Source: Candidatus Oxydemutator sp. (GTDB lineage: Bacteria; Pseudomonadota; Gammaproteobacteria; Poriferisulfidales; Oxydemutatoraceae). From it: DNA of 64,000 nucleotides. Below, piece by piece: positions 5,927-45,442 of this stretch; position 1 is the first letter of the stretch, and every line of letters begins with the position of its first letter. Both the position numbers and the translations under genes were made by a program. The notes beneath the pieces are model-generated. The model ran no database searches, was not told the origin of the DNA, and was given only the letters and a program-made list of their open reading frames with translations. The stretch spans positions 1 through 64,000 of the forward strand of contig OZ241883.1 in assembly GCA_965203445.1 (NCBI GenBank). Reading direction: 5' to 3'.

Positions 5927-6041
5927 AGAAAAGTCCCGTTAAGAAACAGGCGCGCCTCGACGCGCAGCGACGTACTCACGGAAATCGCGCGAAACCCGCA
6001 GCCTTGAAATATACCCGTCGTTCCCGCACACTATCGCCTCT

Positions 6042-6359
6042 ATGACGACCATGGCACAACATTTCGACACTCTCGGCGCGGCCGAGGAATTGCGAGCCGC
6101 CAGCCTGTCGGCGCCGGCGGCCAAAGCGATCAGCCTGGTCGTGGACCGCAGCCGCGAGGAAGACAAACTCGCCTCTGAAGTAGCGGCCTTACGCGCCGAA
6201 TTCAAAGAGGAAATCGCTGAAGTCAAGGCCGACATCGCGGTGATCAAAAGTCAGATGAAGGTTCTCTTTTGGGCCTTCGGCCTCATTTTCGTGGCTGTCC
6301 TTGCGAATTTTGCCGTGAGCGTGAATATTCTGCTGAGTCTTAGTGGCGCCCAGCCATAG
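6042..6359 (+). CDS. DUF1640/CCDC90-like coiled-coil membrane protein
   Basis: HFDTL head motif, heptad stalk, C-terminal TM helix; paralog at 35588. Confidence 0.65.
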   Translation: MTTMAQHFDTLGAAEELRAASLSAPAAKAISLVVDRSREEDKLASEVAALRAEFKEEIAEVKADIAVIKSQMKVLFWAFGLIFVAVLANFAVSVNILLSLSGAQP

Positions 6360-6413
6360 GCGGCAAGTCCCCCCCTTATCCATGCCCTCCTCTCCCGTCG
6401 TCTCCGCAAAAAC

Positions 6414-8777
6414 TCAGTCATCAACCTCGTTCCAATAGCGTCGCGCTTGTCGTCGGTAGGCGCTGATTCGGGGAGGCGCCGCGGGCGTGAAATACAGGCC
6501 CAGTGCGCCGGTGTCGGCGGTGTTCAAGACGCGCACGCCGCGCCGGCGGTAGCGGCGCAGCACGTCGGCCCTCGGCAAACCGAACTTGTTGCGATAGCCG
6601 GAGGTGACCACGGCCAGACGCGGCGCGACCTTGTCGAGAAAGGCCGGGGAGGACGACGTGCGGCTGCCGTGGTGCGGCACCAGCACCACCTCGCTGGCGA
6701 TGCGCGCATCGCGCGTCAGCGCGCGCTCGGCGGCGCGCTCGACGTCGGCGGTGAGCAGCAGCGAGTGCCCGCCGCCGCTGATCCTGAGCACGCACGAGGC
6801 GTCGTTGCCCGTGTACGTGCGCATTGCCGGCGGACGCAGGATCTCGAAGCGCACGCCGTCCCAGGTCCACTCGTCGTCGCGACACGCCTCGAAGTCGCGG
6901 CCCGCGACCGCCAGAGATTCGCCGCCGACCAGGCGCTTTGCGGCGACGTGGCGCAGCACGCCGGCGGCGCCGCCGGCGTGATCGTTGTCGTTGTGCGAGA
7001 CGATCAGCAGGTCGAGTTCGCCCACGCCGCGCGCGCGCAGATACGGCACGACGACCGCGGCGCCGAGATCGAACGTCGGATAGGCCGCGCCGGCGTCGTA
7101 GAGCAGCGCGTGGCGGTGGGTTGCGACAAACACCGACAGCCCTTGTCCGACGTCGAGGAACACCGCCTCGAAATCGCCGCGCGCCGGCGGCGCCGACGCC
7201 TTATTCAACAACGGCAACAGCAACACCAACGCAAGCGGCTTCAGCGAACGGCGCGGCAACGCCAACAGCAGCGCGACGCCGGCCACCGCCGTCGCCAAAG
7301 CCCACGCCGGCGGACGGTGCGACCACTCGGCGGCATCCGCCGTCGCAAGCCACGCGCCCGCGCGCCAGAACACGTCGAACAAAACGTCGGCGCCGCGCAG
7401 CAACCACGCCGCCGGCCAATCGGAGAACGCGGCGAGCAACGTGGCCGACAACGACGCCGGCAATATCAGGAAACTCACCAGAGGCACCGCGAACAGGTTC
7501 GCCAGCGGCGCTATCAACGAGGCGCGCGCGAACAAAGCCAGCGTCGGCAGGCCCATCGCCAGCGACAGGTAGACTTGCAGTTTCGGCCATCGCCCCCAGT
7601 GCGCGGCGCCGGCTTGCGCGGACAAAAACAGCACGATGAAGGCGACCGCCGCGAACGACAGCCAGAACGACACCGACAACGGGCTGAACGGATCCCACAG
7701 CAGCACCGCCAGCAGCGACGCCGACAGCGACTGCGCCAGCGACGGGCGCCGCCTTTGCAGGCTGCCGAACACAAAGCACGACAGCATCACCAACGCGCGC
7801 TGCGTCGGCAGCGAGAAGCCGGCGAGCAGCGCGTAGCCGAAGGCGAACGGCAATGCCGCGAGCGCCGCCGCGTGGTGCGCCGGCAAGCGCGCGCACGGCG
7901 GCGGCAGGCGCCTCAGCAGCGCGCGCGCCAGCCAGAAGAACAGACCGAAGACCAGGCCTATGTGCAAACCCGAGACCGCGAACAAATGGCGCGTGCCGGT
8001 GGCGTTCAGAATCTCGCCGCGCTCGGGCGCCAGCGAACCGCCCAACCCCAGCGACAACGCGGCGACCGAATCCACGTGCGCGATCTCGGCGCGGTGCGCG
8101 CGCAGCCTCTCGAGCAGCGCCTGACGCCAGACCAACGGCCGCCACCACGAATCGCCGCCGGAAGGTTCGCCAAGCTTTTGATAGCCGCGCGCGTAGCCGG
8201 TGGCGCCGATGCCGCGCATGAACAGCCACCGCTCGTAATCGAAGACGCCGGGATTGGCGTAGCCGTGCGGACGCCTCAAGCGCGCGCGCAAAAGCAGGCG
8301 GTCGCCGGCGCGTACCTCGGCGCGTCGGGCGGTGCGCGCGTCGGCGTAGCGGGCGGCGCGCCGGTCGTACAGATTGATGCGCGCCCTGCGCGACGGAAAC
8401 AGCGCGGCGGAAGCGGCGGGCGCATCCGCCGGCTTCTCTGCGTCGGCGAGCACGCCGTGCTCGACGGCGAACTCGAAGGCCGTATAACGCCCGCGCACGG
8501 CCGGCAGCGACGCGACGCGCCCGGTCAACTCCCACGTCCGCCCATCCAGCACGGATGGCAACAGCGCGTCGAGACGCGCGCTCGCGGCCACCAGCGCGTA
8601 CACGAAACCGGCGGCGAAAGCGCCCGCGATCAAACGCCACGGACGGCGCGACGCCAACCCCAGGAACAACGGCGCCGCCGCCCAGGCCCACCCCGGCGCC
8701 GGCAGCCGGGGCAGGCCGTGCAGCGTCAGATTCCCGGCGAGAAACGCCAGCGCGACAAAATGAATCGCGGCGATCAT
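6414..8777 (-). CDS. comEC: DNA internalization competence protein ComEC/Rec2
   Basis: HLFAVSGLH, DVGQG, SHNDNDHAGG, PHHGS, YRNKFGLP. Confidence 0.92.
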   Translation of the reverse strand: MIAAIHFVALAFLAGNLTLHGLPRLPAPGWAWAAAPLFLGLASRRPWRLIAGAFAAGFVYALVAASARLDALLPSVLDGRTWELTGRVASLPAVRGRYTAFEFAVEHGVLADAEKPADAPAASAALFPSRRARINLYDRRAARYADARTARRAEVRAGDRLLLRARLRRPHGYANPGVFDYERWLFMRGIGATGYARGYQKLGEPSGGDSWWRPLVWRQALLERLRAHRAEIAHVDSVAALSLGLGGSLAPERGEILNATGTRHLFAVSGLHIGLVFGLFFWLARALLRRLPPPCARLPAHHAAALAALPFAFGYALLAGFSLPTQRALVMLSCFVFGSLQRRRPSLAQSLSASLLAVLLWDPFSPLSVSFWLSFAAVAFIVLFLSAQAGAAHWGRWPKLQVYLSLAMGLPTLALFARASLIAPLANLFAVPLVSFLILPASLSATLLAAFSDWPAAWLLRGADVLFDVFWRAGAWLATADAAEWSHRPPAWALATAVAGVALLLALPRRSLKPLALVLLLPLLNKASAPPARGDFEAVFLDVGQGLSVFVATHRHALLYDAGAAYPTFDLGAAVVVPYLRARGVGELDLLIVSHNDNDHAGGAAGVLRHVAAKRLVGGESLAVAGRDFEACRDDEWTWDGVRFEILRPPAMRTYTGNDASCVLRISGGGHSLLLTADVERAAERALTRDARIASEVVLVPHHGSRTSSSPAFLDKVAPRLAVVTSGYRNKFGLPRADVLRRYRRRGVRVLNTADTGALGLYFTPAAPPRISAYRRQARRYWNEVDD

Positions 8778-8916
8778 CGCCGCAGGATGACCGCGCTCGC
8801 GCCGCCGCGACCACGCAATCCGACGAACGGTAGCGCGTGCGCGGCTGGATGTTTGCCTGCGGTTTCATTACAATCGGCGACCCCGCCGACGAAACGCACC
8901 AAGACGTGCCCGGGAA

Positions 8917-9426
8917 ATGCCTAAGAAATGGATTCAACAAGTGTTGCTGCGACGCGGCGCGCGCGCCCATCCGCGCCTGAGCGTCTTCGGCGGCCTGCTC
9001 GACAAGGAAAACCTGTGGCACATCAACCGGCGCTCGGTCGCCACCGCGTGTGCGACGGGCAGTTTCTGCGCCTTCATCCCGGTGCCCTTCCAAATGCTGA
9101 TCGCGGCGTTCGCGGCCATCGTGCTGCGCGGCAACGTCGCGATAGCGGCGCTGCTGGTGTGGATCACGAACCCGCTGACGATGGGGCCGATCTTCTATAC
9201 GTGCTACCAGCTCGGGCAGACGATATTAGGCACGTCCTTCGTGTCGTTTGAATATGAGATGAGCCTGGCGTGGCTCGCCGACGGACTGCGCCAGGTATGG
9301 CAGCCGTTGCTGTTGGGCTGCCTGATAGCCGGCAGCGTCAGCGCAATCGCCAGCTACACGCTGGTGCGCCTGCTCTGGCGCCTGCAAATTATTTCGCAGA
9401 GACAAAAAAGGCGCGACGGCGCGTAA
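8917..9426 (+). CDS. DUF2062 family membrane protein
   Basis: LWHINRRSVA, FIPVPFQM, WITNPLTM; usual position between comEC and lolD. Confidence 0.8.
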   Translation: MPKKWIQQVLLRRGARAHPRLSVFGGLLDKENLWHINRRSVATACATGSFCAFIPVPFQMLIAAFAAIVLRGNVAIAALLVWITNPLTMGPIFYTCYQLGQTILGTSFVSFEYEMSLAWLADGLRQVWQPLLLGCLIAGSVSAIASYTLVRLLWRLQIISQRQKRRDGA

Positions 9427-9544
9427 CCGACGACGCATCTTCGGCGGGCGTCTCCCCCTTCACTGATCCGCCGACAAAATCATTCGTCCGTTTCCGGGTT
9501 TTCTCGTCCGCTACCCGGTGCGGCCCGCGTTCATTATCGAAGGG

Positions 9545-10246
9545 CTACAAGACGCCGGATTGGGACACCGCGGTCAGGCGCCCGTCTTCCAAACGATAAA
9601 CGCGCGCAAGGCGCGCCGCCAGGTGCTCGTCGTGGGTGGCCAACACCAGCGTGCTGCCGCCGTCGCGGTTGAGCTCGAGCATCTCGCCGGCGACTTGCGC
9701 CGCGGTGGCGCGGTCGAGCTGACCGGTCGGTTCGTCGGCCAGCACCACGGCCGGGCGGGTGATCAACGCGCGACACACCGCGGCGCGCTGGCGTTCGCCA
9801 CCGGACAACTGGTGCGGCTTGTGGTCGGCGCGGCGGCGCAGGCCGACCTTGTCGAGCAACGCCAAGCCGCGCGCGCGCGCGGCGCGGCTCCGGTCGCCGC
9901 GGATCAGCAGCGGCATCAGCACGTTTTCGAGAACGGTGAAGTCGTGCAGCAGATGGTGGAATTGATAGACGAAGCCGAGGTCGCGGTTGCGCAGACGGTC
10001 TTGCGCGGCGCGCGGCATCGCCGCAAGCGGTTCGCCGCCGACGAACACGGCGCCGGCGTCCGCGGCGTCGAGGCCGCCCAGCAAGTGCAGCAGCGTGCTT
10101 TTGCCCGAACCGGACACGCCGACGACGGCGACGCTCTCGCCCGCCTCCGCCCGCAGGTCGAGACCCTTCAGCACCTCGACGCACAACGCGCCGGCGCCGT
10201 AGCTCTTGCGCAGCGCGCGGCACTCGACGGCGGGCCGCGCGCTCAC
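9545..10246 (-). CDS. lolD: Lipoprotein-releasing ABC ATPase
   Basis: [36 protein letters not shown]; GTG start overlaps the permease stop. Confidence 0.9.
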   Translation of the reverse strand: MSARPAVECRALRKSYGAGALCVEVLKGLDLRAEAGESVAVVGVSGSGKSTLLHLLGGLDAADAGAVFVGGEPLAAMPRAAQDRLRNRDLGFVYQFHHLLHDFTVLENVLMPLLIRGDRSRAARARGLALLDKVGLRRRADHKPHQLSGGERQRAAVCRALITRPAVVLADEPTGQLDRATAAQVAGEMLELNRDGGSTLVLATHDEHLAARLARVYRLEDGRLTAVSQSGVL

Positions 10247-11490
10247 GATTCCCCGAGCACTTCGGCCGGGCGCACGCGCGCCGCGCGCCACGCCGGGTAG
10301 ATCGTCGCCAACACCGTCAGCACGAACGCCAGCGCGGCCACCAGCGCGACGTCGGACGCCAGCAACCTCGACGGCACCTCGGTGATAGGATAGACCTCGG
10401 GCGACAGAAATTTGAAGCCGGTGGCGCGCTCGAGCGCGCCGACCAGCGCCTCGAGATGGCTCGCCAGCGCGACGCCGCCGGCGACGCCCAGCACGTTGCC
10501 GAGCAGGCCGACCAGGCAACCCTTGACGATGAAGATCTTCATAATGCGGCGCGGCGCCATACCCATCGTCTTCAGAATCGCCACGTCGGCGCGCTTCTCG
10601 ATGACGACCATGACCAGCATCGAGATGATGTTGAACGCGGCGACCGCGATGATCAGCGTCATCACGATCAGCATCAGCAGTTTTTCCAGCTCGATGGCGC
10701 GAAAGAAATTGGCGTGGCTGCGCGTCCAGTCGACGACCCAGTAGTCGGGGCCGAAGCGCGCGTTCAGGCGGCGCGTCACGCGCGGCGCGTCGAGCAGGTC
10801 GGCCAGCCTGAGGCGCAGGCCGCTGACCGCGCCGTCCGGCAGGTGTGCCAGGCGGCGCGCGTCGTCCAGGTGCAGCAACGCGAGGCTGCGGTCGAACTGC
10901 GACAACCCCGACTCGAACGTGCCGACGACGGTGAAGCGCCTTAGGCGCGGGATGACGCCGGCGGGCGTCACCGTGGTCCTGGGGCTGACGACGGTGACGG
11001 CGTCGCCCGGCGCCACGCCCAGACCGCGCGCCAGCGCCTGGCCGAGGATGAGGCGGTAACGCCCGGCTTCCAGGTCGCCGAGCGAACCGGATTTCATGTG
11101 TCCGGCCACGTCCGACACGCGCCCTTCGATCTCCGGCAGCACGCCGTGCAGGTAGGCGCCGCTGACGCGCCCGCCGTTTTGCAGCATGCCCTGTATCTCG
11201 ACGTGGGGGGCGGCGGCGGCGACGCCGTCCTCGGCCTCTAGCAGGGGCCTGAGCGCGCGCCAATCCCGGTCGCCGTCGGCGAGGCCGCCGACGGTGGCGT
11301 GCGCGACCATGTCGAACATGCGCTCGCGTATCTCCTCCTTGAAGCCGTTCATCACCGACAGCACGGTGATGATCACGGTCGCTCCGACGGCGATGCCCAG
11401 AACCGAGATCAGCGACACGAACGAGATGAAGCGGTTGCGCTTGCGCCCGCGCGTGTAGCGCCAGCCGATGCGGTATTCGACGCCGAACAC
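10243..11490 (-). CDS. Lipoprotein-releasing ABC permease LolC/LolE
   Basis: RYTRGRKRNRFISFVS, VLSVMNGF, VAAFNIIS, YPAWRAARVRPAE. Confidence 0.9.
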   Translation of the reverse strand: MFGVEYRIGWRYTRGRKRNRFISFVSLISVLGIAVGATVIITVLSVMNGFKEEIRERMFDMVAHATVGGLADGDRDWRALRPLLEAEDGVAAAAPHVEIQGMLQNGGRVSGAYLHGVLPEIEGRVSDVAGHMKSGSLGDLEAGRYRLILGQALARGLGVAPGDAVTVVSPRTTVTPAGVIPRLRRFTVVGTFESGLSQFDRSLALLHLDDARRLAHLPDGAVSGLRLRLADLLDAPRVTRRLNARFGPDYWVVDWTRSHANFFRAIELEKLLMLIVMTLIIAVAAFNIISMLVMVVIEKRADVAILKTMGMAPRRIMKIFIVKGCLVGLLGNVLGVAGGVALASHLEALVGALERATGFKFLSPEVYPITEVPSRLLASDVALVAALAFVLTVLATIYPAWRAARVRPAEVLGES

Positions 11491-33109: not shown

Positions 33110-33750
33110 CGACGTTGCCGCCCGATTGCTTCGCGCACCGGGCGGTAGCCCTTACGGTGCGCGGCGCACGCGCCGTGCGCCTCCAATGCGCGCACGTGGG
33201 CGCGCGTCGGATAGCCCTTGTGCGACGCGAAGCCGTAGGCCGGATAGGTTTCGTGCAGACGCGCCATGCGGCGGTCGCGCTCGGTCTTCGCCAGGATCGA
33301 GGCCGCCGAAATGCAGCCGACGCGCGCGTCGCCGCCGACGACCGCGCAGCACGCGACGGCCGTATCGGGGCAGCGGTTGCCGTCTATCAGCGCGCAGTCC
33401 GGCGCCACCGCAAGCGCCCGCAACGCGCGCGCCATCGCCAACAGCGTCGCGTGCAGAATGTTCAGCCGGTGAATCTCCTCGACGCCGGCGGCGGCCACCG
33501 ACCACGCCAGCGCGCCGCGCCGGATGTCTTTTGCAAGCGCGCTCCTTGCGTCGGCAGCCAGCGTCTTCGAGTCGGCGCAGCCGGCCACCGGACGCGCCGG
33601 ATCGAACACCACCGCGGCCGCCACCACCGGCCCGGCCAACGCGCCGCGCCCCGCCTCGTCCACGCCGGCGACGAGGCGCCCGCCAAAGTCCGGCAGACGC
33701 GCGGCGGCGGGAACCAGTTTCGGCAACGGGGATCGGGCGGGCGCGTTCAT
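33097..33750 (-). CDS. rnhB: Ribonuclease HII
   Basis: [26 protein letters not shown]. Confidence 0.95.
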
Positions 33751-34274: not shown

Positions 34275-34445
34275 GGCGGCGTCCGGGCGGCGTCGGCCTG
34301 GCACATAGAGCACCGGCGGCATCCGGGCGGTGTCGGCCTGGCACATGGAGCGCCGGCGGCGTCCGGGCGGTGTCGGCCTTGCACATGGAGCGCCGGTGGC
34401 GTCCAGGCGGTGTCGGCCTGGCACATGGAGCGCTGGCGGCATCCG
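34275..34445. repeat. 40-bp tandem repeat, ~4.3 copies
   Basis: Unit ggcggcgtccgggcggtgtcggcctggcacatggagcgcc; no spacers. Confidence 0.9.
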
Positions 34446-35878: not shown

Positions 35879-36346
35879 GTGGCCGAGGGTTCGGCACCCA
35901 TTCAAACCACGCCAGAACCCTCCTCATCAGCCTTGGCACGCATTATGTTGAAATTCGAGAAAGTAATCGAATGCTTGACGCTATGCGGATATACCGCAAG
36001 CGCAAACTACATTGATTATCTGCGCTTCACCGACGATCTGGAAGAGGGAGACAAACCGCTGACCTTGGAGTCCGCCATGGGGTTTGTCGCCCTGATGCAG
36101 AACTTCGGCGACCTGGGAGAACCAATGATAGGGCTCTTTTCAGAAGGAACAATATCGGCGGAATGGCGAATTGCAGACGACAAACACCTCTTGATCGAAC
36201 CACTGGACGACAACAAAGCGTCTTTCGCCCTTATCGGCCCATCAGACAAACCAGGAAAGAAATTCCGCATGAACGGCAGAGGCACGATTACCGAAGTCAT
36301 CGCCACCTTGCGCAAACACGGCGTCGACCGGTGGATGAGCGCGTGA
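35879..36346 (+). CDS. Hypothetical protein
   Basis: Plausible globular 155-aa ORF following the previous gene; no motif recognised. Confidence 0.5.
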   Translation: MAEGSAPIQTTPEPSSSALARIMLKFEKVIECLTLCGYTASANYIDYLRFTDDLEEGDKPLTLESAMGFVALMQNFGDLGEPMIGLFSEGTISAEWRIADDKHLLIEPLDDNKASFALIGPSDKPGKKFRMNGRGTITEVIATLRKHGVDRWMSA

Positions 36347-36415: not shown

Positions 36416-37843
36416 TCAAGGCGTCGGCCTTTCGCTTCCATCCCAATAACACTGGAACTGGCGAACATGGTTAAACTCGATGATGTTTCCCCTGTGCTGT
36501 CTGCATAGTGAATTTATATCGAAAAATGGGTTCCCAATATCTTTACCATTCATAGGGTAATGGGCACATTCATCGTCTATATATTGGCATCTCGGACTAG
36601 CACCCAAAGAAGGTTCATTTCCATTGTATTCCAGGTAGCGCGCGTGCGATGGAATAATACCCCCCCAGTGGCAAACTAGATCCATTAGAGTGCTAACGGC
36701 AGAAGAAGCAAGAATCCCATTCGACCAGACAACCTGTGGCTGAGCTCCCGCATCCCCATAAGATCGAGCTTCTTTATCAACTTTTTGATCTTTGAGTACG
36801 CCCATACACCTAAGACAAGGCCTCCCAGGCATGGACAAAACGACTTGACCAGAAATCCGAAAAAACTTGCCACTCTTACTGACAACCATTCCAATATCTA
36901 TATAAGGGATATGATTTCTGCGACAGAATCGTTCCAGCTCATCCCGTTCTTTGAATGAATCAAGACAACCAAAAATTACGAAACATCCAGCCAAATCATC
37001 CAGCGCTGAACTCCACTTCCCTTTTATCGCATTAACCTCAGCGTCTGGCATGAGCCCTTTAATGGTGCGGGTGGCAATTTCTGCTTTCGTGCGTTCGTTC
37101 TGTACATCTTCCTGGGTCGCGCCGACGAGACGATTCAAATTGGAATTTTCAACTATGTCATAATCACAAATAACATAACGTCCAATTCCTATATGAGCCA
37201 ACTGCTGAATGACATGTGACCCTCCGCCTCCTAACCCGACCACACCAACCCTAAGCCGTGAAAATATCTGTTGACTTTCAGGACCAAGAAAACTTTGCCT
37301 GGAAAAATTACGCTCAAATTTTTTATTATCAGAAAGTCTCTTAGCAGACCATATGGACATTGGGGATCCGACTACAACATACTCATCTATTAGTACTGGT
37401 TCACCATCTTTCGCAAGCCAAACCACCCCCTTTCCTTTATCAAGTGAAAAAACAATAGCACCATGAGGCATATTGCTTGTCACATTAAAAAAATCCGGAA
37501 TAAGTTTGCGATTCGACTCAACATCGACATCACTAAAATTTGTTGCCCCCTTATGCGCATGCAAGTGGACATGAAACATTGAGCAGCCCTCTGACAAAGC
37601 AACTTGCATTGCCATACTGATAGCTTTTCTATTTATACACGCACCGACTGTAGGATCGGCATGGTAACAAGCGTCGGATACGGGATGATATTCTCGAGCG
37701 AGAATGACAAGTGTGTCGTTCGCTGAAGACACTGCCCCGCATGACAAAAAGCCTACACGTTCATCTGCCACGGCGTGTGGTCGAGAGAGATGGACACGCA
37801 CATCCTTCAACAGTTCCTTTGTTATCTTGAAAATAACCTTCAT
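36416..37843 (-). CDS. JAB/MPN peptidase - ThiF/E1 fusion
   Basis: N-terminal E...HVHLH...FSDVD (JAMM-like). C-terminal VVGLGGGGS, D.VENSNLNR, GCLD, PCLRC. Confidence 0.85.
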   Translation of the reverse strand: MKVIFKITKELLKDVRVHLSRPHAVADERVGFLSCGAVSSANDTLVILAREYHPVSDACYHADPTVGACINRKAISMAMQVALSEGCSMFHVHLHAHKGATNFSDVDVESNRKLIPDFFNVTSNMPHGAIVFSLDKGKGVVWLAKDGEPVLIDEYVVVGSPMSIWSAKRLSDNKKFERNFSRQSFLGPESQQIFSRLRVGVVGLGGGGSHVIQQLAHIGIGRYVICDYDIVENSNLNRLVGATQEDVQNERTKAEIATRTIKGLMPDAEVNAIKGKWSSALDDLAGCFVIFGCLDSFKERDELERFCRRNHIPYIDIGMVVSKSGKFFRISGQVVLSMPGRPCLRCMGVLKDQKVDKEARSYGDAGAQPQVVWSNGILASSAVSTLMDLVCHWGGIIPSHARYLEYNGNEPSLGASPRCQYIDDECAHYPMNGKDIGNPFFDINSLCRQHRGNIIEFNHVRQFQCYWDGSERPTP

Positions 37844-38163
37844 TGCAAAACCCGAAGATGATTGGCAAGAATATGTAAGAGAGGAAGGCTGCTACTCACC
37901 CCCGAGTAAGAAAAGGTGTGCCACTCCCGTCCCAAAATTACATGAGTGCTCCAATTCCGCGCCTTGCCGTGGAAACAACGCCCTAAATAGAGATTGGTGG
38001 GTTCAGTTGAGTAACCCAAGAGCACATCTACTTCCTCTACTTTCCCATCCGAGTTAATCCTCGCCCCCGGAATATAGAGGTAATGGCAGCCTGACTCCAA
38101 CCGCTTTTCAGCAGATGGATAGATCCTCCTCAAATCTTGAAAGTCTTTCTCGTCATCAGTCAT
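37840..38163 (-). CDS. Prokaryotic E2-like protein (putative)
   Basis: Coupled between Ubl and E1 by ATGA overlaps; NW..HVILGREWHTFS..ILANHL pattern. Confidence 0.6.
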   Translation of the reverse strand: MTDDEKDFQDLRRIYPSAEKRLESGCHYLYIPGARINSDGKVEEVDVLLGYSTEPTNLYLGRCFHGKARNWSTHVILGREWHTFSYSGVSSSLPLLHILANHLRVLQ

Positions 38164-38387
38164 GAGTACTGCCCCGCAGGTTCATGAGAAATGAACTTTT
38201 GCTCACTTCCTGGACGATCGTTTATCTGAACCTTGTCGCCCTCTCCTATTTCCTTGAGAGTACCATCCTCGATCTGGTCTATGACCTTTACAGGATCGAC
38301 CCCGAGAACCTTTTTCAGTTCGTCAGCAGAATAGTCACCAGGGTTCACTGGAACTTCTCTGCCGTCAATTTCGATATTAACTTTCAT
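38160..38387 (-). CDS. Ubiquitin-like (multiubiquitin-type beta-grasp) protein
   Basis: AAGGAGG RBS; I.IDGREV..G.Y.ADELK..LGV; C-terminal F.SHEPAGQYS with a Gly near the end. Confidence 0.7.
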   Translation of the reverse strand: MKVNIEIDGREVPVNPGDYSADELKKVLGVDPVKVIDQIEDGTLKEIGEGDKVQINDRPGSEQKFISHEPAGQYS

Positions 38388-38612
38388 AATATCCTCCTTA
38401 ATGATTGATAGTTGATCGAAAATAGCTCGTTTGAGCTTCATTTGGCCATCATAAACAACTTCTTTCTATCTTACAAGTGAAAATAAAGTAAGATAATGTC
38501 AAATATAATGACATTTGTATGTATATTATATTGTGTTTCAATACAAAGGTGTTCTGTTTCTGTCCCTCAGCTTCGCGGGATAAAGACAGACATCTAAACA
38601 CTCTTAATATAG

Positions 38613-39041
38613 ATGTCCAAAAACAATCTCGGTTTGGCGAACCAATTCTATAGTGCCTTCGGGAAGCGCATTAAGAACCGGAGACGCGAACTGAAATTCA
38701 CACAAGTTGGGCTGTCAGAACTTGTTGGTATGTCCCGCACTACTCTTGCCAACATAGAGGCAGGCACCCAAAGAACTTCAGTGTTCTTGCTAATGCGCAT
38801 GGCAGATGCATTAAAAATTTCTCCAAGCGAGTTGATACCAAGTCTTTCCGAAGTGGAGGATCAACTGCGACAAGCGCGGAGAGCCTCCATACCAAGTGGA
38901 AACCAATCAAAATTAATAATCAAAGAACTAAAAAGTCTCAACATTTCTGTGAAGCCTAAAAGCAACATGGAAAGTGCATTGGAGGAAACAGTAAGCGAAG
39001 AAAAACTACGACTAAATAAACACAAAAGGAGAAAAACATGA
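38613..39041 (+). CDS. XRE-family HTH regulator (CapH-like)
   Basis: GKRIKNRRRELKFTQVGLSELVGMSRTTLANIEAG. Confidence 0.88.
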   Translation: MSKNNLGLANQFYSAFGKRIKNRRRELKFTQVGLSELVGMSRTTLANIEAGTQRTSVFLLMRMADALKISPSELIPSLSEVEDQLRQARRASIPSGNQSKLIIKELKSLNISVKPKSNMESALEETVSEEKLRLNKHKRRKT

Positions 39042-39577
39042 ATGATTTCTATAAAAGGCTCGATGAGAAGGCGTACAAACTGCTCTTGCGATCAGAAGCA
39101 CTTGCCTTACCTGTAAGTCTTGAGAAGATCATCAACTTTTTGAAACTTGTTATACGCAAGAAGCCACTGGAAGACGAATTTGCCGGTTTCTTGGCGATAG
39201 AAGAAAAGACTATCGTAGTGAACTCACGGCAGGCGTCAGTACGCAGACGCTTCACTATCGCTCATGAGATTGGACATTATGTACTTCACAGAAAAAGCAA
39301 CCCCTCTTCACCTGTTTTTATTGACCGAACATATTTCCGTAAGAAAATTGATATTAGTAGCGCGACAGAACATCAAATGGAAATAGAGGCCAATGCTTTT
39401 GCAGCCGGCCTTTTAATGCCACAGATATTATTGGACGGATACCTTGATGAACATGCCGATATAGATGTGGGCAAAACTGTAGATATAAAGCTAATGGCGG
39501 ATGAATTTGAAGTAAGCAGGCAGGCCATGCGATTCCGCCTCCGTAATCTTGGATTTCTGGTAGAAATCAGTTTTTAG
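39038..39577 (+). CDS. ImmA/IrrE family metallopeptidase (CapP-like)
   Basis: RRRFTIAHEIGH, EIEANAFAAGLLMP. Confidence 0.9.
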   Translation: MNDFYKRLDEKAYKLLLRSEALALPVSLEKIINFLKLVIRKKPLEDEFAGFLAIEEKTIVVNSRQASVRRRFTIAHEIGHYVLHRKSNPSSPVFIDRTYFRKKIDISSATEHQMEIEANAFAAGLLMPQILLDGYLDEHADIDVGKTVDIKLMADEFEVSRQAMRFRLRNLGFLVEISF

Positions 39578-39585
39578 GCGATCTC

Positions 39586-41214
39586 ATGCCGACGTTGGAG
39601 TTCAAGGGTAAGCATATTGTCTATGCGCACCATCTGAGCGTTCCTTACCGGACGCTTGACGTGGTGCGTCGGAAGTCGGTGCCGGCGCGTGGGGCGGGCG
39701 CCGAGGAAGGCAGCCTGATTATCCACGGCGACAACCTGGACGCGCTGAAGGCGCTGATGCCGCGCTATGCCGGGCGCGTGAACTGCATCTATATAGACCC
39801 GCCCTACAACACCGGCAACGAGGGCTGGTGCTATAACGACAACGTCAATTCGGAATTGATGAAACGTTGGCTTGCGGAAAACGGCGCGGTGGACGGCGAC
39901 GACGAGGAGCGCCACGAGAAATGGCTGTGCATGATGTGGCCGCGCCTGCAACTGTTGCGCGAACTGCTGGCCGAGGACGGCGTGATTTTCATCTCGATAG
40001 ACGACCACGAGCAGCACCGCCTGCGGCTGATGATGGACGAGATTTTTGGAGAGGACAACTTTTATGCGATGTGTAGCTGGACGGCGCGCAACAAACCAAT
40101 GAACGCGGGCAGCGCGCGATTTAAGATACAAAAATCAGAGGAATATATCTTGGCTTACGGAAAAATACCGATGCCTGATCATGCGCCTTTTGTATTGGAA
40201 GAAAAAGAAGAACTGGAATACCCGTACACGGCTGATGACGGCAGAACGTATCGTGAGGAAGAAGTCCAACAAAGAAAAAACATCGGTATCAAGAGATCCG
40301 AAAAAATGGTTTTCTCCATTCTTGGCGTAGCACCACAAGCCAGCTATCGCTGGACAATAGGACGAGACACGGCCGAGCGACTTGCGCAAGAAAACAAAGT
40401 TTTTGCGCGGAACGGGAAGCTTATAAGAATTTTCTTCAGCGATGATGAATTAGAAAAACGATACCATCCCTTGTGGGCCAATTTCAATGAGTCTTGCGGG
40501 ACGAGTGAATCCGGCAAAAAGAAATTGGATGAGATAGTCAAAGGACACGGTATGGAAACCGTAAAGCCGGTTGACGTCATCAAAAAAATAATTTTCCACT
40601 TCGCCGGCAAAGACGCCATCATACTCGACTCGTTCGCGGGCAGCGGCACCACCGCCCACGCAGTGCTCGAGCTGAACAAACAAGACGGCGGCAACCGCAA
40701 GTTCATCCTCATCGAGTGCGAGGACTACGCCGACAAGGTCACCGCCGAGCGGGTGCGGCGCGTGATCAAAGGCGTGCCCGGTGCCAGAGACAAAGCCCTG
40801 CAAAAAGGGCTGGGCGGCACCTTCACCTTCTGCACGTTGGGGCGCGAACTCAACATCGAGAGCCTGCTGCGCGGCAAAGACCTGCCCGACTACGACGCCT
40901 TGGCGCGCCACGTGGCCTATACCGCGACCGGCGCCGCGATGGACAAGATCAGGCCGGGCAGGGATCACTACTTCGGCGAGACGGCGGACTATCGCCTGCA
41001 CATGATCTACCGCCCGGAAAAAGAATTTCTGTGCTCCAAGGAATCGGCGCTGACGCGCGACCTGGCCGTGCGCATCGGCAAGGCGGCGCGCAACAAAGGC
41101 AAGACCGCGCTGGTGTTCGCGCCGTGGAAATTCATCTCGCAAAAGGACCTGAGCGCGGAAAAGGTCACCTTCTGCCAACTGCCCTACGCCATCCACCAAC
41201 TCTACGGGCTGTGA
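39586..41214 (+). CDS. Type III RM methyltransferase Mod
   Basis: IHGDNL, IYIDPPYNTG, ILDSFAGSGTT; followed by Res. Confidence 0.9.
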   Translation: MPTLEFKGKHIVYAHHLSVPYRTLDVVRRKSVPARGAGAEEGSLIIHGDNLDALKALMPRYAGRVNCIYIDPPYNTGNEGWCYNDNVNSELMKRWLAENGAVDGDDEERHEKWLCMMWPRLQLLRELLAEDGVIFISIDDHEQHRLRLMMDEIFGEDNFYAMCSWTARNKPMNAGSARFKIQKSEEYILAYGKIPMPDHAPFVLEEKEELEYPYTADDGRTYREEEVQQRKNIGIKRSEKMVFSILGVAPQASYRWTIGRDTAERLAQENKVFARNGKLIRIFFSDDELEKRYHPLWANFNESCGTSESGKKKLDEIVKGHGMETVKPVDVIKKIIFHFAGKDAIILDSFAGSGTTAHAVLELNKQDGGNRKFILIECEDYADKVTAERVRRVIKGVPGARDKALQKGLGGTFTFCTLGRELNIESLLRGKDLPDYDALARHVAYTATGAAMDKIRPGRDHYFGETADYRLHMIYRPEKEFLCSKESALTRDLAVRIGKAARNKGKTALVFAPWKFISQKDLSAEKVTFCQLPYAIHQLYGL

Positions 41215-41218
41215 CGCG

Positions 41219-43816
41219 ATGCGCCCGAAAGAGTTCCAGGAAAACGCCCTCGACACGTTCGCCGCGTTCCTCGCCGAGCTGAAAAAACAGCAGGACGAGA
41301 CGGACAAGCGCGTCGCGGCCCTGGAGCGGGCGGCGGTAGCCGTCGGCGAAAAAGACCGCGACTATTTCGCCAGAACCTGGGAAGAATTGGGGCGGCGCGG
41401 GCTGCTGCCGCACGTCTTGGGCAAAGACGGCTCCAGGCATCCGCCGGCTTACGTGCAACGCTGCGACTGCCGCGGTGCGGTGGTGCCGCACGTGTGCCTG
41501 AAACTGCCCACCGGCGGCGGCAAAACCTTGCTGGGGGTGGCCGCGCTCGAGCGGATGAAGCCGCAAACGGGACTGGTGCTGTGGGTCACGCCGTCGCGCG
41601 CCATCTACAAACAGACCATCAGCGCGTTCGCCTACCGGGCGCACCCGTATCGCCAGTGGCTGGAGCGCGCCTGCGGCGGGCGCGTGAAACTGCTGCGCAA
41701 GAAAGACCAGTTCTCACGCGCCGACGTCGAGAACTATCTGTGCGTGCTGCCGATCATGCTGCAAGCGGCGGATCGGCGCAATGACACCGGCTTTCTCAAG
41801 ATCTTCCGCGACACCGGAAAATATCCCGGCTTCTTTCCGGACGCCGACGACGCGCCGGCCAACGACGAACTGCTGGCAAAGCACCCCGACCTGCACACCG
41901 GCGACCTGGCCGAAGACGCGCCCGGCGCGATCCGGCACAGTCTTTTCAACGCGCTCAAGATCGCGCGCCCGATCATCGTGCTCGACGAGGCGCACAACGC
42001 CTACACCGAAAACCGGCGGCGGCGGCTTTGCGAGTTCAACCCGCGCTTTGTGCTCGAACTGTCGGCGACGCCGGAACCCGGCGTCAGCAACGTCCTGGTG
42101 GACGTGCCGGGGGCGGCGCTGAAACGCGAGCAGATGATCAAACTGCCGCTGCACGTCCACAACTTCGAGAAGACCGACTGGAAATACACGCTGTCGAAAG
42201 CCAAAGAAAAGCGCGACATCCTGGAGCAGGAGGCGAAGGCGCTCCAGGGCGAGAGCGGGCGCTACATCCGCCCGATCATGCTGATCCGCGTCGAGCGCGT
42301 CGGCAAAGAGCAGCGCGACGGCCACCACGTGCACGCCGAAGACGTGCGCGACTACCTGATGACGCAACTGAAAGTGCCGCAAGACCATATCCGCCGCAAG
42401 ACCGCCGAGAAAGACGAGATCGCCGACGAGAACCTGCTGTCGCCCTATTCCGCGGTGCGCTACATCCTGACCAAAGACGCATTGCGCGAGGGTTGGGACT
42501 GCCCATTCGCCTACGTGCTGGCGCTGCTCGACACCACCAGAACGAAGGGCGCCCTGACCCAGATGACCGGACGCATCCTGCGCCAGCCCGACGCCGAACT
42601 GACCGGGCAAACGGCGCTGGACGAGTCCTATATCTATTGCTTCGACCGCAACGTGGGCGAGACCGTGGCCCAGGTAAAGCGCGGCCTCGAACAGGAAGGC
42701 ATGAGCGACCTGGCCGAGTTCGTGCGCCAGGGCGATGCGTCGGGCGACATCGCGAGCGGCGCCGTGGTCAAAACAATACGGCGTCGGCGAGCGTTCAAAG
42801 ACACGCGCATCTTCCTGCCGCGCGTCCTGCACCGCGCCGCCAAAGGCGGCAAGCGCTATCGCCCGCTGGACTACGAGACCGACGTGTTGGGCGGCGTGCA
42901 CTGGCACGACGTGGCCGCCGCGCCGCTGGGAATAGACGCGGCGGCGATAGACAAAGTCCGCGAGATCAGGGCCTCGGTGGATTTGCCGGGGTTCGACTTC
43001 GATTCGGACAACGAAGAGAAAATCATCGTCGTGGACAAGGAGTTGGCCGTCGAGTTTTTTGCCCGCCGCGTGTATGAAATCCTGCCCAACCCGTGGCTGG
43101 CGGGAGAAGTCGTGCGGCGGATGTTCGCCTCGCTGCGCCGCGAATACAACTATGACGACGACGCGATCTTCGACCGCCGCTACCACCTGTCGGAAATCCT
43201 GAAACAACGGCTCACCGAACTGATCGAGCACGAGGCGCGGCAAGTCTTTGCGCGCAAGCTTGAGAGCGGCGACATCCGCTTTGAACTGACTGCCGCCGAC
43301 GCCGGCTTTGAACTTGTGCGGACGCTGGAAAAAATGGTCGCAAGCGGCCAGCAGCCGCTGTTCCGCGAGCACAGCGATGTGCTTGAGAAATCGCTCTACG
43401 AAACGATGTACACCAAAGAGTTCAACGGCCTGGAAAAGGACTTCGCGCTCTATCTGGACGGCCACAGCGCCGTCGCCTGGTGGCACCGCTTCGCCGCCCG
43501 CCAGGACTACGGGCTGCAAGGCTGGCAGCGCCACCGGGTGTATCCGGACTTCGTCGTCTGCGTCGGCAAGGCCAACGGCAAAGGCGGCAGGCGCCGCGTC
43601 CTGGTGCTGGAGACAAAGGGAATGCAACTGGCCGGCAACCCCGACACCGAATACAAGGAAGCGCTGTTCCAGATGCTGGAAACGGCCGAACCCCGCGCCG
43701 CCGAATACGGCAGCCTGGCACTCGCAAAAGACAACCGCAAAGAACACCGCATGTCCCTGAGAATGATGTTCGAGAACAATTACCGGGAAGAATTCGAGAG
43801 GCTGGTGCAAAGTTGA
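41219..43816 (+). CDS. Type III RM restriction helicase-nuclease Res
   Basis: PTGGGKT, DEAH, LREGWD, GRILR; C-terminal YPDF...LETKG. Confidence 0.88.
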   Translation: MRPKEFQENALDTFAAFLAELKKQQDETDKRVAALERAAVAVGEKDRDYFARTWEELGRRGLLPHVLGKDGSRHPPAYVQRCDCRGAVVPHVCLKLPTGGGKTLLGVAALERMKPQTGLVLWVTPSRAIYKQTISAFAYRAHPYRQWLERACGGRVKLLRKKDQFSRADVENYLCVLPIMLQAADRRNDTGFLKIFRDTGKYPGFFPDADDAPANDELLAKHPDLHTGDLAEDAPGAIRHSLFNALKIARPIIVLDEAHNAYTENRRRRLCEFNPRFVLELSATPEPGVSNVLVDVPGAALKREQMIKLPLHVHNFEKTDWKYTLSKAKEKRDILEQEAKALQGESGRYIRPIMLIRVERVGKEQRDGHHVHAEDVRDYLMTQLKVPQDHIRRKTAEKDEIADENLLSPYSAVRYILTKDALREGWDCPFAYVLALLDTTRTKGALTQMTGRILRQPDAELTGQTALDESYIYCFDRNVGETVAQVKRGLEQEGMSDLAEFVRQGDASGDIASGAVVKTIRRRRAFKDTRIFLPRVLHRAAKGGKRYRPLDYETDVLGGVHWHDVAAAPLGIDAAAIDKVREIRASVDLPGFDFDSDNEEKIIVVDKELAVEFFARRVYEILPNPWLAGEVVRRMFASLRREYNYDDDAIFDRRYHLSEILKQRLTELIEHEARQVFARKLESGDIRFELTAADAGFELVRTLEKMVASGQQPLFREHSDVLEKSLYETMYTKEFNGLEKDFALYLDGHSAVAWWHRFAARQDYGLQGWQRHRVYPDFVVCVGKANGKGGRRRVLVLETKGMQLAGNPDTEYKEALFQMLETAEPRAAEYGSLALAKDNRKEHRMSLRMMFENNYREEFERLVQS

Positions 43817-44071: not shown

Positions 44072-45442
44072 ATGAAGCTTCAAAGCCTGATCGCCGGCTA
44101 TCTGGAGAGGCTTGCGTGGTTGACCACCTCCCCAGGCACGTACGCCTACCGCGGCCAGGCAAATGCCGGTTGGCCGCTGAAATCGGCGGCTTACCGGCGG
44201 TTCGAGAATAATAGCGAGGAAGAACCCACCCGAGATGATTTTATCGAATACCATGAAGAGATTCTGGAATCTGCCCGCATGGATGGACACGGTGTAGTGG
44301 ACGGCCGCGATTTGAGAGACCTGGAACTGCTGGCCAAGTTGCAGCACCTCCGCACGGCGACCTGCCTGATTGACTTCAGCCGCAACTTCCTTGTTGCATT
44401 GTGGTTCGCCTGCCTTCCTCATAAAGGTAAAGACGGCACGTATACAAACGGCAAAGTGTTTGTCGTGAACACGAATGATCCTGTTACTTTTCTTTCTTTG
44501 GAACAACAAGACTTAAAGAAAAACATACAGAAAGTTCTTACTTTCAAAACACGCGAACAAGACGAATCCAGCACCGGAAGGAATGAAACCAGTATGCGAA
44601 AACCCTTGTATTGGCACTGGTCACCACACGGCCTGAACGAGAGGATTCTGAAGCAAGACAGCCTATTCATCTTTGGGCCGCCGAAGATAGAAGACACGCT
44701 GCTGCAAAGCATTAAGATCAGGCAAGAGGACAAAACCAGCCTCCTGCAAGAGCTCGAAACATTAGGCATAACGAGGAGATCTCTATTTAAAGATCTATCG
44801 GGATATGCAGAATCGCACGGCTGCAACGAACCTCTGCCGAAATTCCCGCGGACGGCAGAGGACTATTTTCGGGCAGGAAACGAAGCCTATCAACGGGGTA
44901 AAATAGACAAAGCTATAGAAAACTACAACAAAGCGATCAAACGCAAATCTGATTATGCACAAGCTTACAACAACCTAGGAGTTGCCAAAGCCAATCAAGG
45001 AAAAATGCTCGATGCCATAACAGACTATGACCAGGCGATCAAACTCAAGCCCGATCACGCGAACGCCTACTACAACCGAGCAATTACCAAAACCAAGCTG
45101 GAACGCTATCACGCTGCCATAACAGACTATGATCGTGTGATTGAACTCAAGCCCGATGATGCGGAAGCCTATATCAGCCGAGGGCGTGCCAAAACCAAGC
45201 TAACAGGCTATCACACTGCTGCCATAGCAGACTTTGACCGGGCGATTCAACTCAATCCTGATGATGCGAATGCCTATTGCTGCCGAGGAATTGCCAAGGC
45301 CAAACAGGGTGGTACAAATTCGGCACGAAGCGACCTCATCCGCGCAAGGCAGTTGGCTGAGCAAAGCGGAGACAACGAGCTTATGAAAATAATTGACGAA
45401 GCCCTATCGTACCTGGACGGCATAGACAAGCGCGGCAAATAA
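44072..45442 (+). CDS. FRG domain protein with C-terminal TPRs
   Basis: YRGQAN..W.L, LQH...T.LIDFS.N.LVALWFAC, NERILKQDSLF, then 34-aa TPR units. Confidence 0.85.
   Translation: MKLQSLIAGYLERLAWLTTSPGTYAYRGQANAGWPLKSAAYRRFENNSEEEPTRDDFIEYHEEILESARMDGHGVVDGRDLRDLELLAKLQHLRTATCLIDFSRNFLVALWFACLPHKGKDGTYTNGKVFVVNTNDPVTFLSLEQQDLKKNIQKVLTFKTREQDESSTGRNETSMRKPLYWHWSPHGLNERILKQDSLFIFGPPKIEDTLLQSIKIRQEDKTSLLQELETLGITRRSLFKDLSGYAESHGCNEPLPKFPRTAEDYFRAGNEAYQRGKIDKAIENYNKAIKRKSDYAQAYNNLGVAKANQGKMLDAITDYDQAIKLKPDHANAYYNRAITKTKLERYHAAITDYDRVIELKPDDAEAYISRGRAKTKLTGYHTAAIADFDRAIQLNPDDANAYCCRGIAKAKQGGTNSARSDLIRARQLAEQSGDNELMKIIDEALSYLDGIDKRGK

Follow-up and report, generated by a model that had tools for sequence, protein, structure and literature searches.

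A probable minimal, BubE-free ubiquitination-like module of the Bub lineage in an AT-rich island of Candidatus Oxydemutator sp.

In a 64,000-nucleotide stretch of a Candidatus Oxydemutator sp. genome (assembly GCA_965203445.1, contig OZ241883.1, positions 1 to 64,000 of the forward strand; the window), three adjacent minus-strand genes encode a small candidate ubiquitin-like protein (Ubl), an E2-like protein and a fusion of a JAB peptidase with an E1-type adenylation domain (JAB-E1). Which pathway do these genes specify, and how does it relate to the conjugation systems already described in bacteria? An initial annotation had proposed a conjugation system resembling the bacterial ubiquitination-like (Bub) operons, with peptidase and E1 fused. 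Our analysis bears out this core, as the three proteins are profile-level homologues of BubA, BubB and BubCD. Together with two divergent regulators they probably constitute a minimal, horizontally acquired ubiquitination-like conjugation pathway of the Bub lineage, class 6e of Iyer et al. What the annotation had overlooked is the regulatory CapH/CapP-like pair itself, the absence of BubE and the altered accessory residues of the E2.

The operon begins with the bubA-like Ubl gene (38160-38387, 75 amino acids (aa), AAGGAGG before its ATG at 38387), continues with the standalone, UBC-related bubB-like E2 gene (37840-38163, 107 aa) and ends with the bubCD-like JAB-E1 gene (36416-37843, 475 aa, with JAB/JAMM at about residues 1-165 and ThiF/E1 at about 170-450). 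An alternative in-frame ATG at 38441 would extend the Ubl to 93 aa; the family alignments begin near MKVNIEI. Both junctions are 4-nt ATGA overlaps and the G+C fraction (GC) is 0.41-0.47 over 36500-39500 versus 0.68-0.72 in the flanking host DNA (dnaE/rnhB region), which agrees with the earlier description of three AT-rich, translationally coupled genes. The low-GC block holds five genes, the other two being the divergent plus-strand regulators, and this cassette has about 43% GC in a host genome of roughly 70% GC. All five open reading frames (ORFs) are intact and keep their start/stop overlaps. The GC contrast, together with a patchy occurrence among related genomes, indicates that the five-gene module was acquired horizontally.

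A single-protein scan gave no relatives of these genes, whereas a scan seeded with an alignment, run over 185,579 species genomes, yielded 481 candidates and 437 tblastn-confirmed stretches, from which 80 loci were kept. The gene set is real and not a chance neighborhood, because the same order of Ubl, E2-like and JAB-E1 genes returns across these 80 loci. According to record titles, tallied by eye, the relatives are mostly Bacteroidota, Verrucomicrobiota, Acidobacteriota, Gemmatimonadota and Melainabacteria, with some Proteobacteria. Clustering of the ORFs within 3 kb recovered JAB-E1 in 79 loci, Ubl/E2 in 66 and helix-turn-helix (HTH) plus M78 proteins in 56; every other family was confined to at most 4 of the 80. 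A Ubl ORF detectable by hidden Markov model (HMM) was present in 75 of the 80 loci and stood alone in 74 of these 75. Ubl-E2 fusions are rare: they occur in locus L017 and in one database protein, P0186, a 360-aa natural fusion in which Multi_ubiq repeats ending in ...GGSA precede the E2 domain. Closer to the window, one genome of the same genus encodes a JAB-E1 that is 57% identical, and the E2 of this family was detected in 1 of 401 same-phylum genomes, the window's own.

The JAB-E1 protein gives the most direct link to a characterized system. It matches Pfam ThiF at 6e-36 over residues 184-418, and its top match in the PDB is Citrobacter BubCD (9ea4_A, 4.8e-17, residues 78-322), covering both the H-x-H region of the JAB domain and the adenylation domain; the PADLOC E1-E2 models gave only weak E1-domain matches (best 1.5e-9). 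Its family is large, with more than 2,400 matches among 8,000 scored candidates, nearly all of 430-490 aa. The N-terminal domain displays E28, H93-x-H95, S104 and D107 in the JAMM pattern E...H-x-H-x8-S-x2-D. In the family alignment, E28, H91, H93, H95 and D107 are invariant (20/20), and so are the adenylation residues R238, K253 and D316 and the C343, C346, C426 and H428 of a C-x2-C...C-x-H motif. E28, H93, H95, D107, R238, K253 and D316 are also invariant across five canonical BubCDs, taken as the JAB-E1 proteins of DUF6527-bearing operons, and S104 is likewise invariant in the family and in canonical BubCDs. The JAMM-like domain reported at first sight thus has its JAMM residues intact. The loop region reads RPCLRCMGVLKDQKVDKEARSYGDAG and, as had been noticed for the segment after CLRC, is free of cysteine between C346 and C391. 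The tyrosine of its SYG motif, Y362, is invariant (20/20) and lies just upstream of a G-x-x-G-x-PQVVW motif, where canonical BubCDs have their loop tyrosine. The database entry for this product (P0001) is 387 aa long, 81% of the ORF, which implies that the public gene call begins inside the JAB domain; we favor the 475-aa form because the family alignment and the ATGA overlap support it.

The invariant cysteines raise the question of whether the protein could be a conventional thioester E1, or part of a ThiF/MoeB-type sulfur-carrier system. C343, C346 and C426 are indeed found in every member of the family, and the best NCBIfam matches are ThiF, MoeB and UbaA models, all far under their cut-offs. 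However, the cysteines belong to the C-x2-C...C-x-H motif, which is typical of the structural zinc site in ThiF/MoeB/UBA5-type E1s, and none of them is in the crossover loop, whose invariant residue is a tyrosine. Among the window's ORFs, Pfam detected no rhodanese domain and no thiamine or molybdenum cofactor genes near JAB-E1. The genome has a separate ThiF/MoeB-like gene (C1:1995233-1995703), and both the E2-like gene and the JAB domain argue for conjugation. We consider the use of these cysteines for thioester or sulfur-carrier chemistry very improbable.

For the two small proteins, direct sequence searches of the PDB returned nothing useful, and their links to BubA and BubB emerged only through alignments of canonical Bub proteins. 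For these, DUF6527 was located in 17 of the 401 same-phylum genomes and 15 regions were taken. The window Ubl matches Pfam Multi_ubiq under the cut-off (E 0.0026-0.0047), and this model matches 11 of 49 members of the Ubl family, at best with E 1.7e-7. A profile of the last beta-grasp domains of canonical BubAs (A7) matches the solved Ubl structures 9d59, 8u38 and 9cd2 as well as Citrobacter BubA (9ea8_B). Alignment of the window Ubl family (A6) to this profile with hhalign gave a probability of 96.6% (E 6.3e-10), which supports the prediction that the 75-aa protein is a beta-grasp Ubl related to BubA.

The Ubl ends in ...SHEPAGQYS, that is, Gly72 followed by the three-residue tail QYS. A glycine is found exactly four residues from the end in 69 of the 74 standalone Ubl ORFs of the related loci (as Gly-Gly in 25 of the 69), only at the third position from the end in 3 and at neither position in 2; 51 of the 74 finish with a Ser-Ser dipeptide. 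The window's ...A-G-Q-Y-S conforms to this G-x-x-x rule, and the suggestion that three residues must be trimmed to expose the glycine of PAG-QYS agrees with the conserved position in the family. Two Longimicrobium loci (L006 and L024) are exceptions to the rule: their Ubl ends in ...PRDSASSH..., lacks the glycine where it is normally found and has a longer acidic tail. A tail of otherwise fixed length suggests that JAB recognizes it as a substrate. By analogy, it would be the counterpart of the BubA|BubB junction in Citrobacter, which BubCD is reported to cleave after Gly229 (Ye et al.; PMC11601596).

The 107-aa E2-like protein alone had no match in Pfam, NCBIfam, PADLOC, PHROGs or the PDB. 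A HMMER scan for its family collected 93 cluster representatives, nearly all of 100-125 aa, and in the family alignment (A2, n=79) Ser85 is the single residue invariant in all sequences (79/79), followed by H102, W71 and W81 (78/79 each). The position of R57 holds Arg in 75 sequences and Lys in 3, and that of Y54 holds Tyr in 75. We compared this alignment with a profile of four canonical BubB domains from DUF6527-bearing regions (A4), which itself matches Citrobacter BubB (9eae_C) at 1.9e-24. The two aligned over 83 columns with a probability of 95.3% (E 2.3e-8). GREWHTFSY pairs with GKRWQRWSR, so that S85, the serine of the WHTFS motif singled out in the initial annotation, falls on the catalytic serine of the BubB W-S-R-H motif; an HMM alignment agrees. 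R57 shares its column with the BubB active-site Asp, and position 87 with the BubB His. The window E2 HMM did not align the E2 domain of a Type II BubBD (best E 1.0). These comparisons support the 107-aa protein as a BubB-related, UBC-like E2 with Ser85 as its predicted catalytic residue. The initial reading had been made to depend on a beta-grasp fold for the 75-aa protein and a UBC-like fold for the 107-aa protein, and the hhalign probabilities of 96.6% to BubA and 95.3% to BubB predict both.

A different reading of the same protein is that it is a non-catalytic, RWD-like adaptor that binds the Ubl, and that the E1 transfers the Ubl directly or no protein is conjugated at all. The 79-sequence alignment shows no conserved cysteine, Pfam hardly sees an E2 in the family (only 2 of 79 sequences with a weak Prok-E2_E match, best E 0.034), and the His and Asp that accompany the serine in Type I BubB are not conserved. 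Moreover, Iyer et al. read the E2-like domains of class 6e as inactive (PMC1779556). However, the sole invariant residue of the family is precisely the serine that aligns with the catalytic serine of BubB, and in Citrobacter mutation of that serine, together with the His, is reported to abolish conjugation (PMC11601596). An adaptor would have no obvious need for an invariant serine and a histidine kept in 78 of 79 sequences. We therefore regard an adaptor as an unlikely explanation and retain the serine E2.

How close is this operon to the Bub systems already described? Ye et al. distinguish Type I operons (BubAB + BubCD + BubE) from Type II operons (BubA + BubBD + BubE) and assign oxyester intermediates to Bub chemistry (PMC11601596), as the initial annotation had stated. 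In the Citrobacter Type I system (Ye et al., 2024 preprint, 2026 in Nature Structural & Molecular Biology), mutations in the JAB active site prevent cleavage, and conjugates are lost with Y370F and with S333A/H335A (PMC11601596). The window module shares with Type I the JAB-E1 fusion and its JAMM residues, the Cys-free crossover loop with an invariant Tyr, a UBC-related E2 whose catalytic position is always a Ser, a beta-grasp Ubl needing cleavage after a conserved Gly, a frequent association with CapH + CapP, and a location in mobile or defense islands. Fusion of JAB to E1 is nothing new, being the normal form of Type I BubCD. In contrast to Type I, Ubl and E2 are here separate genes, the Ubl having its fixed three-residue tail where Type I has a BubAB fusion; no BubE/DUF6527 is found in the window genome or in the 80 related loci; and the E2 is without the S-x-H His and the Asp, with an Arg (Asn in the window) and the C-terminal His102 instead. 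Three traits that define Type I are thus missing from the window clade, namely the fusion, BubE and the accessory His and Asp. Type II shares the oxyester-type E1 Tyr, the E2 Ser and the Ubl family but differs in its E2-E1 fusion, in being without a JAB domain and in having BubE.

The E1s of the two groups are also well separated, window-family E1s being only 21-26% identical to canonical BubCDs. In an unrooted tree (MAFFT and FastTree, no outgroup) of 20 window-family E1s, 5 BubE-linked Type I E1s and 4 Type II E1s, with the 170 N-terminal residues removed from the L112 protein and 150 from the Type II E1s, the nine BubE-linked E1s split from the 20 window-family E1s with a support of 0.97. 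By these comparisons, the cassette forms a separate, widespread clade. In its architecture, L112 (G172:C167, about 5990-10280) stands between Type I Bub and the window clade. It is a Bub operon with DUF6527 and a standalone 125-aa E2 that has the canonical S-W-H, the E2 gene sitting between a 230-aa Ubl gene and the JAB-E1 gene. In addition, seven related genomes (G404, G405, G406, G413, G416, G418 and G419), six from the same family and one from the same order, encode JAB-E1-type ORFs of 466-536 aa with 29-33% identity to that of the window, which suggests that other Bub-type operons circulate in this lineage.

BubE was searched for at several levels. PF20137 (DUF6527) had no match in the complete 2.38-Mb genome, and none of the 48 downstream ORFs of the related loci matched DUF6527. 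Our own DUF6527 HMM, built from 13 loci (L081-L092 and L098), had no match with E <= 1 when every frame of the window and of the 80 related loci was scanned. The same HMM recovers 15 of 15 DUF6527 regions (L100-L114); 12 of these hold its own building genes, and the other three score weakly (L113, L114 and L112's partner aside). Nor did another fourth gene emerge, as the downstream ORFs of 48 loci gave no recurrent family. The ORF at 35879-36346, convergent with JAB-E1, has no Pfam, PADLOC, NCBIfam or PHROG match, and the ORF that takes its place in locus L001 is not related to it. No effector was found in the operon, in line with the first description. In 4 of the 80 loci (L004, L028, L036 and one more), a gene for a protein of 750-900 aa lies about 3.5 kb upstream of JAB-E1, three times on the same strand and once on the opposite one. 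The L004 product is a Peptidase_S8 subtilase, and 4 of 47 scanned upstream ORFs match that family; such a protein may serve a sub-clade as an effector or an accessory protease.

Older and more distant classifications were also considered. Class 6e of Iyer, Burroughs and Aravind (2006) is described as comprising a polyUbl, an E2/RWD-like domain, JAB+E1 and a metal-binding protein Y (PMC1779556). The same account mentions a standalone E2-like gene occasionally lying between the Ubl and JAB+E1 genes and a solo Ubl domain in one genome, while taking the E2-like domain to be inactive. With a solo Ubl, an E2/RWD-like domain without Cys and JAB+E1 in a single operon, the window has the core of this class; the C-x3-C...H-x2-C metal-binding protein that class 6e also encodes (now DUF6527/BubE) is absent from the window clade. 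Bil operons (Type I/II BilABCD) share the Ubl, E2, JAB and E1 functions, a short Ubl tail after a conserved Gly and, in a subset, CapH/CapP regulators as in the window module. In Bil, however, JAB has a gene of its own, the large E1 has IAD-AAD-CYS domains and a catalytic Cys, and the E2 is a Cys enzyme, whereas the window has one adenylation domain fused to JAB, no CYS domain and no conserved E2 Cys. The Cap2/Cap3 pair of Type II cyclic-oligonucleotide-based antiphage signaling systems combines an E2-E1 fusion, a CD-NTase substrate and a separate JAB. This arrangement does not correspond to the window, where no CD-NTase was found among the neighbors.

Taken this way, the window clade may represent a third, uncatalogued Bub type, a proposal that we judge to be evenly balanced between right and wrong. 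It would be a BubE-independent, three-gene system in which the Ubl stands alone and has a fixed G-x-x-x tail, the Ser-E2 also stands alone and has a distinct environment of its serine, and the JAB-E1 has a short Tyr loop; it would be usually controlled by CapH/CapP and present in hundreds of species, mainly outside Proteobacteria. In our alignments, the predicted accessory residues around the serine, an Arg and the C-terminal His102, differ from those of both described types, that is, Arg/His here versus His/Asp or Lys/His. Ye et al. state that every Bub operon possesses bubE (PMC11601596), and the companion paper presents a Bub catalogue drawn from DUF6527-containing operons. The published census would have missed such a type because it was seeded on DUF6527. 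Our literature searches turned up no account of a Bub type that lacks BubE; the operon catalogues in the supplementary tables (Table S1 of Ye et al. and Gong et al.) could list such operons.

On the other side of the operon, a 225-bp divergent intergenic region (38388-38612) separates the Ubl gene from a capH-like gene for an XRE-family HTH repressor (38613-39041, plus strand, 142 aa). It is followed, with a 4-nt overlap, by a capP-like gene for an M78/IrrE-type metallopeptidase (39038-39577, plus strand, 179 aa). The first product matches Pfam HTH_3 (3.6e-12) and PADLOC capH (6.1e-10) and HTH_VI (3.7e-10); the second matches Pfam Peptidase_M78 (4.3e-19) and PADLOC capP (5.7e-30), covering positions 7-152 of 242 of the latter profile. 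An XRE HTH gene followed by an M78 gene, both divergent from the Ubl operon, is the CapH/CapP arrangement, with which Bub operons are reported to be associated (PMC11601596). Both genes share the low GC of the Ubl cassette. Jackhmmer searches from the window regulators found HTH and M78 genes both upstream and divergent in 35 of the 80 loci; counting loci with either gene so placed raises the number to 51. Pfam detected M78 in six further upstream ORFs, out of 47 ORFs from 23 of the remaining loci. In the ORF clustering described above, 82 of the 90 HTH/M78 ORFs are on the strand opposite to the operon. In other genomes the regulators clearly accompany the Ubl cassette, and we take the capH/capP-like pair as part of the Ubl module. 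Within the intergenic region, promoter-like sites were seen on the minus (38476-38448) and plus (38470-38497) strands, and inverted and direct repeats at 38467-38532. The promoter scan was not above the shuffled expectation (5 sites found versus 4.3 expected over the scanned region). The short palindromes may be a candidate operator for the HTH repressor between back-to-back promoters, an arrangement that is suggestive only.

These elements would fit together as follows. The CapH-like repressor would keep the operon off until the CapP-like peptidase, activated by DNA damage or phage infection, removes it; transcription from the 225-bp divergent region would probably be under the control of the two. 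Once expressed, the JAB domain would clip QYS from the Ubl and expose Gly72. The E1 domain would then adenylate Gly72, and Tyr362 of the short Cys-free loop would take the Ubl as an oxyester. From there the Ubl may move to Ser85 of the standalone E2 and finally to lysines of a target protein. Since there is no BubE/DUF6527 protease, deconjugation would be left to the JAB domain or would not occur. We infer each step by analogy, as it mirrors the Citrobacter BubAB/BubCD results of Ye et al. An antiphage or stress role fits the position of the module beside a Type III restriction-modification (R-M) system in an AT-rich island.

Several observations weigh against assigning the module to an active Bub-type pathway. 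The module has no BubE, which every Bub operon is reported to contain. In the MAFFT alignment, Y362 is 2 residues off the canonical loop Tyr, and canonical BubCDs have a crossover loop longer by about 20 residues. In the E2, the column of the BubB S-x-H His holds Ser87 in the window and N/Q/K/R/S across the family, while the column of the BubB Asp holds Arg in 75 of 79 members and Asn in the window. The folds of the small proteins and the E1-E2 contact are predictions from profile homology. Ye et al. report that they could not show phage protection by any Bub operon (PMC11601596), and such protection is likewise presented as not yet shown in PMC13373217. Finally, the capH-capP genes could also serve the adjacent Type III system, with possible read-through, because they are co-directional with the Type III mod gene and end 9 nt upstream of it.

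Part of this evidence concerns the window copy itself. Its E2 is the sole one of 79 with Asn at the Arg57 position and the sole one with Glu at the Tyr54 position, and it may thus be impaired or less active than typical members. Position 57 falls in the column of the BubB active-site Asp, and the capP-like product is short, with 179 aa versus about 290 aa in most related loci. Is this, then, a decaying copy of a Bub-lineage module, whose E2 may no longer conjugate efficiently? Against this stand the five intact ORFs with their overlaps, and the retention of S85, H102, W71 and W81 and of all E1 and JAB catalytic residues. Furthermore, the two nearest E2 relatives (51-52% identical) are also without Y54 and carry K57, and the relative locus L001 (57% identical) has the same short peptidase ORF of 180 aa. 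Because the nearest relatives deviate too, these changes are in part a sub-clade feature. An impaired copy is in our view rather unlikely, and the functional minimal Bub-lineage module remains our preferred reading.

The module, its CapH/CapP-like pair and the neighboring R-M system make up a small defense or stress island in AT-rich DNA. The Type III R-M pair (39586-43816, plus strand; Mod 542 aa, Res 865 aa) matches PADLOC MTase_III at 4.7e-155 and REase_III at 3e-224. Its GC is much higher than that of the cassette (0.58-0.66), with a dip in the middle region of Mod. Right after it, where the DNA still belongs to the lower-GC region, a gene for a 456-aa protein with an FRG domain and tetratricopeptide repeats (44072-45442, plus strand) may be another passenger of the island. 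On the opposite side, a GC-rich 40-bp tandem repeat (34275-34445, 4.3 copies, 90% matches) runs over several spurious-looking ORFs and lies at the left edge of the lower-GC region. Further out, ARAGORN called a 91-nt tRNA-Trp at 33151-33241 (plus strand) within the rnhB-like ORF region, probably a false positive from its length and position.

Both the Bub pathway and its oxyester chemistry have been described before, and the remaining interest of this locus is its minimal BubE-free architecture and its altered E2 active site, which hundreds of genomes share. To our knowledge, Bub systems are the only ubiquitination-like cascades that run wholly on oxyester intermediates. If the proposed third type is active, BubE would be dispensable for Bub-type conjugation, and the three genes would form the smallest known complete bacterial Ubl conjugation cascade. 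The clade also shows that the published DUF6527-based census undercounts the Bub lineage. The BubE-free clade offers a minimal three-protein system in which to ask which residues make a serine E2 reactive, whether the JAB domain both matures and removes the Ubl, and what BubE adds where it is present.

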